In this document: in pieces, positions 25,840 to 25,910 of the stretch
Position numbering within the stretch: position 1 is the stretch's first letter
Layout of the letters: each line of letters opens with the position of its first letter
DNA from: a phage
Strand: one strand, 5' to 3'
Assembly (NCBI GenBank): GCA_018296565.1
Contig: GCA_018296565.1_3935.1
DNA: 64,000 nt
Position numbers and translations under genes: made by a program
Notes under the pieces: generated by a model
Seen by the model: only the letters and a program-made list of their open reading frames with translations
The model's database searches: none
Told to the model about the DNA's origin: nothing

Positions 25840-25910
25840 AGGGGTGAGCTATGGCAGCAATAGAGTCTCCAAAATTCTTGATTAGAGTTCGAATCTCTAC
25901 ACCCCTGCCA
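25840..25910 (+). ncRNA. short tRNA-like element lacking a recognisable anticodon stem (pseudo-tRNA or tRNA mimic)
   Basis: 7 bp acceptor stem aggggtg/cacccct, D-like hairpin ctat...atag, T-arm tagagttcgaatctcta, CCA; only 71 nt and no anticodon helix. Confidence 0.35.

Follow-up and report, generated by a model that had tools for sequence, protein, structure and literature searches.

A conserved tRNA-Trp gene with a truncated D-arm shares a mobile cassette with an HNH endonuclease gene in Felix O1-like phages

Introduction

What is a structurally aberrant, 71-nt tRNA-like gene doing in the tRNA cluster of a bacteriophage? The question is raised by positions 25840-25910 (+ strand) of a 64,000-nt stretch of phage DNA (GenBank assembly GCA_018296565.1, contig GCA_018296565.1_3935.1), which is referred to below as the window. 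The window belongs to the genome of a Felix O1-like phage (subfamily Ounavirinae), and its tRNA cluster comprises 27 ARAGORN calls between 24036 and 29601. An earlier note, made from the sequence alone, took the 71-nt element to lack an anticodon helix and to be either a decayed tRNA gene or a tRNA mimic, such as a Y RNA-like partner of a Ro60-like protein encoded upstream or a decoy for enzymes that target tRNAs. Here we report that the element is a tRNA-Trp(CCA) gene truncated in its D-arm, that it is kept by purifying selection, and that it belongs to a mobile cassette with the HNH endonuclease gene that follows it. It is probably a working, or at least selectively maintained, tRNA-Trp.

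Felix O1 has been described with 22 tRNAs, none of them for Trp (PMC3185647), and the Moogle-like phage Sf14 with tRNAs for "19 different amino acids" (PMC12482277). According to ARAGORN, the cluster in the window spans all 20 amino acids only if the 71-nt element is counted, since the element is its sole Trp tRNA. The tRNA-Trp identity of the element is already given in several GenBank records. We found no description in the literature of the truncated D-arm, of the strong constraint on the element, of its linkage to a mobile HNH cassette, or of its allelism with a second, unannotated non-canonical tRNA-Trp.

Results

The element lacks a proper D-stem but has an anticodon stem

Direct reading of positions 25840-25910 gives AGGGGTG AG CTATGGCAGCAAT AGAGT CTCCAAA ATTCT TGAT TAGAG TTCGAAT CTCTA CACCCCT G CCA. 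The 7-bp acceptor helix, the T-arm, the CCA and the 36 nt separating the 5' acceptor strand from the T-arm are all present as the earlier note had described them. An anticodon stem, which that note had judged impossible to draw, is drawn by both ARAGORN and the Rfam tRNA model (RF00005). It consists of AGAGU paired with AUUCU over 5 bp, with four Watson-Crick pairs and one G-U pair. The discriminator base, the 7-nt anticodon loop with U33 and a purine at position 37, and the 5-bp T-stem with a UUCGAAU-type loop are also those of a cloverleaf (Table 1).

The missing part is the D-arm. Neither Infernal nor ARAGORN nor reading of the sequence revealed U8 followed by a D-stem of 3-4 bp in its canonical register. 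In the Infernal alignment to RF00005, model positions 10-12 are deleted, and the element is without three of the four nucleotides of the 5' D-stem strand. ARAGORN draws only two of the four D-stem pairs, and position 8, where U is near-universal, is occupied by A. A 3-bp mini D-helix (G9-C19/C10-G18/U11-A17) is possible, with a loop, AUGGC, that retains the GG. The complementarity behind the D-like hairpin of the earlier note (ctat at 25849-25852 with atag at 25860-25863) is real, but 25862-25863 belong to the anticodon stem. The calculated energy of the cloverleaf with the mini D-helix is -17.9 kcal/mol, compared with -16.0 kcal/mol for the fold with that hairpin and no anticodon stem.

The element has the features of a tRNA-Trp

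ARAGORN called exactly 25840-25910 as a tRNA-Trp with anticodon CCA. The covariance-model scan proposed in the earlier note as a check gave a match to RF00005 of 33.2 bits (E = 2e-5, local scan of 301 nt), above the gathering score of 29. Rfam scans of the 64-kb window and of a 2.8-kb piece missed the element because it was lost to speed filters, and its absence from these larger scans is an artefact of filtering. The cluster's tRNA-Ser(UGA) has the same RF00005 score of 33.2 bits, a value that falls inside the range of the low Cove scores of the Felix O1 tRNAs (PMC3185647). Low-scoring tRNAs are a general trait of this cluster. In the window scan the ARAGORN tRNAs at 24288-24364 and 24534-24621 (a Met and the Tyr) were below the Rfam tRNA gathering score, and the authors of the Felix O1 description gave the same Met at 28.9 bits and listed the Tyr as "pseudo."

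A Trp-only covariance model was built from nine canonical tRNA-Trp genes, with the alignment padded by cloverleaf parsing and an effective sequence number of 2.2. With this model, which does not cleanly separate the isotypes of the cluster tRNAs, the element scored 48.7 bits (E = 2e-14). The gain over RF00005 of +15.5 bits is the largest among the cluster tRNAs, most of which were flat or scored lower.

The element was also compared with E. coli trpT, using a sequence verified by a 100% match to the annotated tRNA-Trp in all 5,426 genomes. The two are identical at A1-U72, G2-C71, G3-C70, G4, G5, G73, U31-A39 and throughout the anticodon loop, and the first five acceptor pairs match. The identity set of E. 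coli tryptophanyl-tRNA synthetase (TrpRS), reportedly defined by Himeno et al. in 1991, comprises the anticodon CCA, G73, A1-U72, G2-C71 and G3-C70. All of these positions are present in the element.

The canonical tRNA-Trp(CCA) genes of E. coli (trpT), of KVP40-like Vibrio phages and of Erwinia phage Panisse have the acceptor AGGGG.../...CCCCU, G73, the CUCCAAA loop and the T-loop in common with the element; in the KVP40-like phages the whole T-arm is identical. The canonical genes have U8 and score 54-57 bits with RF00005, whereas the element has A8 and scores 33.2 bits. Outside the family, KVP40-like Vibrio phages provide the closest relative, a tRNA-Trp that in phage K567 (54.3 bits) is 78.5% identical to the element. 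The K567 gene and the element align through a common ATGGCAGCA (D-loop plus 3' D-stem), the Trp anticodon loop and the T-arm, while the D region of the element is 3 nt shorter, having lost residues of the 5' D-stem strand. In IMG/VR, all other phage tRNA-Trp genes that have the element's T-arm are canonical, at 72-76 nt. Scanning of the IMG/VR viral contigs yielded no further variants of the short form, and a metagenome scan for such variants or for close relatives with an intact D-arm returned only one unrelated, normal tRNA-Trp.

tRNAs with a reduced D-arm exist in mitochondria, for example metazoan mt-tRNA-Ser(AGY). Like the element, these retain the acceptor, anticodon and T arms and have a shortened or absent D-stem. 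However, they rely on co-evolved mitochondrial factors, whereas the element would face the standard machinery of E. coli or Salmonella, and unlike them the element retains a GG-containing remnant of the D-loop together with a canonical T-loop. A conserved tRNA without a proper D-stem is unusual in a bacterial system.

The truncated form is under purifying selection

The element is found in 23 phage records and is 70-71/71 identical in all of these carriers, so that the truncated form itself is conserved in related phages, as the earlier note had suggested should be examined. It occurs every time with the HNH open reading frame (ORF), within a cassette described in the next section. The cassettes form three lineages that are ~84% identical to one another (~16% diverged). 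The element is 71/71 identical in close genomes and 70/71 identical in phiSUSP1, Sf19, SFPB and EP1. The sole variable site among the carriers is 25852 (T to A), a loop position in the tRNA fold; the change would break a pair of the hairpin drawn in the earlier note.

The HNH ORF is intact in all carriers. Between the window and the divergent lineages, 44-57 of its 135 third codon positions differ (33-42%) and 115-118 of the 135 translated positions (terminal stop included) are identical, the differences being mostly at third positions. The tRNA part of the cassette is thus far more conserved than the nuclease part. In the same comparison the tRNA-Arg is 87-95% identical, the tRNA-Ser 91-96%, and the 26 other tRNAs 78-100%; most of the cluster's bona fide tRNAs are no better conserved than the element, or less so. 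By rough arithmetic, a 71-nt sequence changing as fast as the remainder of the cassette would be expected to gather ~19 substitutions on the three-lineage tree, and one was observed (P ~1e-7). This deficit shows that the truncated form is kept by purifying selection and is no decaying pseudogene. The near-neutral evolution expected of a pseudogene was not found, with a single difference in 71 nt set against the third-position divergence of the neighboring ORF, and the decayed tRNA gene of the earlier note is hence strongly disfavored.

The element is part of a mobile HNH cassette

As had been noted earlier, an HNH endonuclease gene follows immediately downstream of the element. Its ORF matches phrog_2255 (E = 5e-45), begins with ATG at 25925, 14 nt after the CCA of the element, and is preceded by a Shine-Dalgarno-like AGGTG at 25915-25919. 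The Pfam HNH models match the 134-aa product only weakly, below threshold. The protein is 47% identical to the product of Felix O1 Felix01p093, another HNH gene located between tRNA-Gly and tRNA-Thr, and is a paralogue of it.

The 6 nt upstream of the element, the element itself, the 14-nt spacer and the HNH ORF make up a 498-bp cassette that exactly replaces 85 nt of Felix O1 between the common flanks ...GAATTATAGT and AGTCTTATTA... In 233 records the slot holds a different, longer allele, and the cassette accounts for ~9% of related records. Its carriers belong to three genera, namely Felixounavirus, Mooglevirus (SFPB, Sf19) and Suspvirus (phiSUSP1, EP1). Both alleles occur even in one species, Mooglevirus Sf17, where phage Sf17 carries the long allele and Sf19 the cassette. 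Comparison of Sf19 (Mooglevirus) with phiSUSP1 and EP1 (Suspvirus) showed 99.8% identity in the cassette but only 80.6% in the upstream spacer and 89-91% in the downstream DNA. Because near-identical cassettes are embedded in flanks of 80-91% identity, the cassette has moved horizontally between phage genera.

The nuclease belongs to a homing endonuclease family, the presence/absence polymorphism is precise, and the phylogeny of the cassette is incongruent with that of its flanks, as in a homing cassette. A known counterpart is SegB, a free-standing homing endonuclease in the tRNA gene region of phage T4 (PMC2330249). In both systems the nuclease gene lies among tRNA genes, is present or absent between close relatives, and is co-inherited with flanking tRNA DNA. 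SegB is a GIY-YIG enzyme, whereas the cassette nuclease is of the HNH type and would home by analogy. Unlike in the SegB case, the tRNA co-inherited with the cassette nuclease is structurally variant and takes the place of another allele resident at the slot.

Beside the long allele of phage Arno162, orf70 looks HNH-like by eye but has no Pfam family match, and we make no claim for it.

The same slot holds a second non-canonical tRNA-Trp-like allele

In Felix O1 and most Ounavirinae (233 phage records) the slot is occupied by an 83-nt long allele, which is not present in the window. Its sequence is ATGGGACG-ATGTTAAGA-CTC-TAAGGCAT-GAG-C-AACGG-CYTCCAAMA-CCGTT-TCAAA-GGGG-TTCRAMT-CCTC-CGTCCCAT-G-CCA. 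The long allele is called by neither ARAGORN nor Rfam and is annotated as a tRNA in 0/233 records. Nevertheless, RNAalifold folds it into four helices with 20 pairs in all (acceptor, 8 bp; D-stem, 3 bp; anticodon stem, 5 bp; T-stem, 4 bp). Across the 11 distinct sequences compared, 99.5% of the cells are paired and 8 of the 20 pairs show compensatory double changes, which support all four helices. The covariation score was reached by 0/500 shuffles, and slid controls showed none. The loop is CUCCAAA in most versions and G73-CCA is present in all. An invariant GAUGUUAAGA linker is inserted between the acceptor and the 3-bp D-stem. Scored with the Trp-derived model, the long allele aligns over its full length (33-34 bits), a 23-nt insertion taking the place of the D-arm.

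The Trp loop, G73-CCA, the covariation and the Trp-model score of the long allele identify the slot as a Trp slot. In essentially all these phages it is occupied by a tRNA-Trp-like gene, in one or the other of two mutually exclusive forms that are non-canonical in different ways. The long allele and the 71-nt element have in common the slot and its flanks, CCA in a Trp-type loop, G73-CCA and a four-helix tRNA-like fold, and both are non-canonical in the D/hinge region. However, the long allele is a separate sequence lineage that has no BLAST similarity to the 71-nt element and no linked HNH gene. In the outgroup Kolesnikvirus (Erwinia phage Panisse) a canonical tRNA-Trp of 56.8 bits is found in a different slot.

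Three further observations concern these genes. In the Infernal alignment of the Panisse tRNA-Trp (L051:5786-5858), positions 27-43 are U-C and 31-39 are C-A, leaving the three central pairs of the anticodon stem; the A/C mismatch at 31-39 also occurs in the KVP40-like tRNA-Trp genes and in the long allele. A pairing of the long-allele linker UAAGAC with a 3' trailer GUCUUA was considered and dropped, as by eye it is not conserved in Pectobacterium phages. Finally, an unrelated-looking viral contig, IMGVR_UViG_3300012933_000183 (49 kb), has the 15-nt GGGACGATGTTAAGA in common with the long allele at L033:50-108; the sequence then diverges and includes a TCCAAA. The likeness could reflect distant kinship with the long allele, or it could be due to chance.

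The Ro60-like protein has a better candidate RNA partner

The earlier note had called a protein encoded upstream Ro60-like. In Pfam this 471-aa protein matches DUF2828 and DUF7788 only; there was no match to TROVE even at E values up to 10, and PDB searches with the single sequence and with a profile returned nothing. The AlphaFold model (pLDDT 87, pTM 0.87) bears out the claim, in that full-length Ro60/TROVE proteins, a Thermus phage Ro60 among them, make up all of its top 11 fold matches in the PDB, with E values of ~1e-8 to 4e-7. The protein is therefore predicted to have the Ro60 (TROVE plus vWA) fold. Homologues are widespread in phages and include a KVP40 protein (46% identity) and mycobacteriophage proteins annotated as "Ro-like RNA binding protein."

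Y RNAs of the YrlA type have a Ro60-binding GNCGAAN0-1G motif near the 5' end and are encoded within 4 kb of a Ro60 orthologue, on the same strand; their termini form the Ro60-binding stem where a tRNA has its anticodon stem, and their acceptor-like stem is closed into a hairpin (PMC4201824). Phage Ro60 proteins bind phage-encoded Y-like RNAs (PMC12135203). The 71-nt element resembles YrlA-type RNAs (PMC4201824, PMC12135203) in being tRNA-like and in its location on the same strand as a gene for a Ro60-fold protein, 1,970 nt downstream of it and so within 4 kb. The motif is absent from the element; within 4 kb of the Ro60-like gene it occurs once on the + strand, at 24906. Rfam scans gave no Y-RNA family match. 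There is neither a terminal bulged stem nor a circular permutation, and the open acceptor with G73-CCA and the closed anticodon arm are the opposite of the YrlA arrangement. The Y RNA-like identity suggested in the earlier note is not borne out.

A segment at 24851-24988, which has no Rfam match, does have the YrlA arrangement. A circularly permuted tRNA-like module is enclosed in a bulged outer helix (24851-24864 with 24976-24988), and the order within it is a V-like hairpin, a T-arm (24909-24925), a closed acceptor-like hairpin (24926-24943) and a canonical D-arm (24946-24960). The closed hairpin covaries between genera, being ACTCG/CGAGT in some phages and ACACG/CGTGT in others. This segment is a better candidate partner of the Ro60-like protein than is the 71-nt element.

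Surroundings of the Trp slot

A sigma-70-like promoter at 25383-25411 precedes the tRNA-Arg(UCU) and the 71-nt element. By consensus matching only, there is no terminator-like site on the + strand between this promoter and 26700. The spacer upstream of the Trp slot (25692-25839, 148 nt) is conserved in phages with either allele. It holds a hairpin, CATGTT-TTCCAG-AACATG, and a weak promoter-like site at 25802-25830, and one depositor has annotated a promoter within it. A second polymorphic slot is found at the tRNA-Arg(UCU) of the window (25615-25691), where Felix O1 has the HNH endonuclease gene Felix01p088 (L001:3005-3397). The tRNA-Arg(UCU) is missing in Felix O1, wV8, an uncultivated viral genome (UViG) and Seyj1-1. 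HNH paralogues sit in several inter-tRNA slots.

Table 1. Positions of the features discussed (window coordinates unless otherwise stated)
Feature	Position	Strand	Remarks
tRNA-Trp(CCA) gene, short (D-arm-truncated) allele	25840-25910	+	68 nt + encoded CCA; ARAGORN, RF00005, Trp-derived model
Acceptor stem 5' strand AGGGGUG	25840-25846	+	7 bp with CACCCCU 25900-25906
Residual D region (A8, G9, CUAUGGCAGCAAU)	25847-25861	+	D-stem 5' strand missing
Anticodon arm	25862-25878	+	Stem AGAGU 25862-25866/AUUCU 25874-25878; ARAGORN, Infernal
Anticodon loop CUCCAAA	25867-25873	+	Anticodon CCA at 25869-25871
T-arm UAGAG-UUCGAAU-CUCUA	25883-25899	+	Direct reading, ARAGORN, Rfam model
Discriminator G73 and genome-encoded CCA	25907-25910	+	G at 25907, CCA at 25908-25910
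Mobile cassette, 498 bp (6 nt + tRNA-Trp + 14 nt + HNH ORF)	25834-26331	+	Boundaries relative to Felix O1
HNH endonuclease gene, 134 aa	25925-26329	+	Presumed free-standing homing endonuclease; phrog_2255 E = 5e-45
Long allele	L001:3535-3617 (Felix O1, NC_005282 ~26,533-26,615)		Same slot as window 25834-26331
Ro60-like protein, 471 aa	22455-23870	+	AlphaFold model and Foldseek
Candidate YrlA-like Y RNA	24851-24988	+	In tRNA-free gap 24704-25133 (430 nt), 1 kb downstream of the Ro60-like gene
Best upstream sigma-70-like promoter, TTGACA-17-TATAGT	25383-25411	+	11/12 consensus match only; not evidence of function

Discussion

Given its structure, allelism, mobility and constraint, we consider that the 71-nt element is probably a tRNA-Trp with a truncated D-arm that works, or is at least kept by selection, and that has spread with the HNH gene by homing with co-conversion. 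Expression, charging and decoding of the tRNA would proceed as follows. The element would be transcribed as part of the tRNA operon and matured by RNase P and by 3' trimming to the encoded CCA. Host TrpRS would charge it through the retained identity nucleotides, and the charged tRNA would read UGG, supplying the twentieth amino-acid specificity of the phage. On the side of the HNH enzyme, cleavage would be directed at genomes bearing the long allele, and repair would copy the nuclease gene together with the linked and functionally equivalent tRNA-Trp. This would be intron-less homing with co-conversion, as for T4 SegB.

Several points weigh against this interpretation. The optimum found by RNAfold is a non-cloverleaf structure of -21.6 kcal/mol, compared with -17.9 kcal/mol for the cloverleaf, and UAGAG is present twice in the element, the two copies competing for the 3' strand of the T-stem. 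The non-cloverleaf optimum tells mildly against a simple tRNA fold; alone it is not decisive, as unmodified tRNAs often behave likewise. With a D-arm unable to form in the canonical register and with A in place of U8, the element must have a tertiary core unlike that of any characterized bacterial elongator tRNA. By absolute score with the Trp-derived model the element is only 6th of the 27 cluster tRNAs. Annotations based on tRNAscan-SE skip the element (Sf19) or label it "tRNA-OTHER" or "tRNA-Pseudo" (wV8, D1-2), so that the depositors' labels across the carriers range over tRNA-Trp, tRNA-OTHER, tRNA-Pseudo and no annotation. Finally, strong conservation shows that the element has a function but does not tell one function from another.

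A non-translational role is the first alternative to be weighed. As a mimic or decoy, the element would titrate or divert a factor that recognizes tRNA-Trp, such as a defense nuclease, a modification enzyme or TrpRS. Its strong conservation despite a non-canonical core fits such a role, as does the retention of Trp acceptor and anticodon features in both alleles while the D/hinge region is changed in opposite directions (a deletion in one, an 8-10-nt insertion in the other). Host systems that cut tRNAs exist, and retron Eco2 cuts tRNA-Trp among others in vitro (PMC12916289). However, no specific Trp-directed defense is known against these phages, and most Felixounavirus species are unrestricted by Eco2 (PMC12916289). 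In addition, the element completes a 20-amino-acid tRNA set, which most simply points to a working tRNA. We regard a decoy as unlikely.

The element might instead act in cis within the HNH cassette, either as a tRNA-like signal for RNase P, whose cut would release the HNH mRNA with its own 5' end, or as a sequence variant that protects the carrier genome from its own nuclease. The 14-nt distance to the HNH start codon and the invariable association of the two genes are in keeping with this idea. Nevertheless, RNase P requires only an acceptor/T minihelix, so that the perfect anticodon arm and the conservation of the CCA anticodon would go unexplained. Immunity to cleavage requires a difference from the target, not 71 invariant bases, and other HNH genes of the cluster follow ordinary tRNAs. 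A cis-acting role is accordingly rather more doubtful than a decoy.

A broader proposal, to which we give equally little credence, is that enterobacterial Ounavirinae keep their tRNA-Trp(CCA) hinge-altered by design. The two alleles, one with a 3-nt deletion and the other with an 8-10-nt insertion, would be interchangeable and would provide a property that normal tRNA-Trp lacks. Candidate properties would be UGA read-through of the Hirsh type or escape from a host factor that recognizes the core of tRNA-Trp, and the homing endonuclease would spread one allele at the other's expense.

In its specific form, this idea makes the element a tRNA-Trp(CCA) that also reads UGA, like the Hirsh (G24A) and A9C suppressors, and so allows programmed read-through of phage UGA stops. 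UGA read-through by E. coli tRNA-Trp is promoted by hinge changes (residues 9-12, 23-26 and 44-45) or by unpinning of the anticodon stem (PMC13092985). Residues 10-12 are absent from the element, and position 31-39 is unpaired in the long allele. As in the Hirsh, A9C and 4-bp-anticodon-stem variants (PMC13092985), the anticodon is unchanged and the hinge between D-arm and anticodon stem is altered, but the known suppressors are point changes, whereas the element has lost three hinge nucleotides. Against UGA reading, TGA ends 14 of the 68 approximate genes of the window, so there is no avoidance, and 10 of these 14 genes have another in-frame stop within 5 codons. No conserved read-through extension came to light, though no search was aimed at one. 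Suppression of UGA is very unlikely.

A decaying pseudogene that hitch-hikes with the HNH gene would explain the broken D-arm, the low general-model score and the "pseudo" or "other" labels given by some depositors, but one substitution in 71 nt across three lineages ~16% diverged makes it highly improbable. Least credible of all is a Y-RNA-like partner of the Ro60-like protein, since the element is absent from ~91% of relatives, all of which have the Ro60-like gene, KVP40 has the protein plus a canonical tRNA-Trp, and a permuted module with an outer bulged stem is present at 24851-24988.

The preferred reading, a D-arm-truncated tRNA-Trp spread by homing, has consequences on several levels. 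For annotation, a twentieth (Trp) tRNA is indicated in nearly all Felix O1-like phages, in two forms that pipelines skip or flag as pseudo. If the element is active in translation, then nature offers a tRNA that lacks a proper D-stem yet operates on standard E. coli or Salmonella machinery, a situation otherwise known mainly from mitochondria. It would then be a ready-made test of what bacterial TrpRS, EF-Tu and the ribosome demand of the tRNA core. The cassette would be a compact case of a homing-type nuclease gene that carries a functional substitute for the gene it displaces, and it bears on how selfish elements co-evolve with the tRNA repertoires of phages, typing and therapeutic phages among them.

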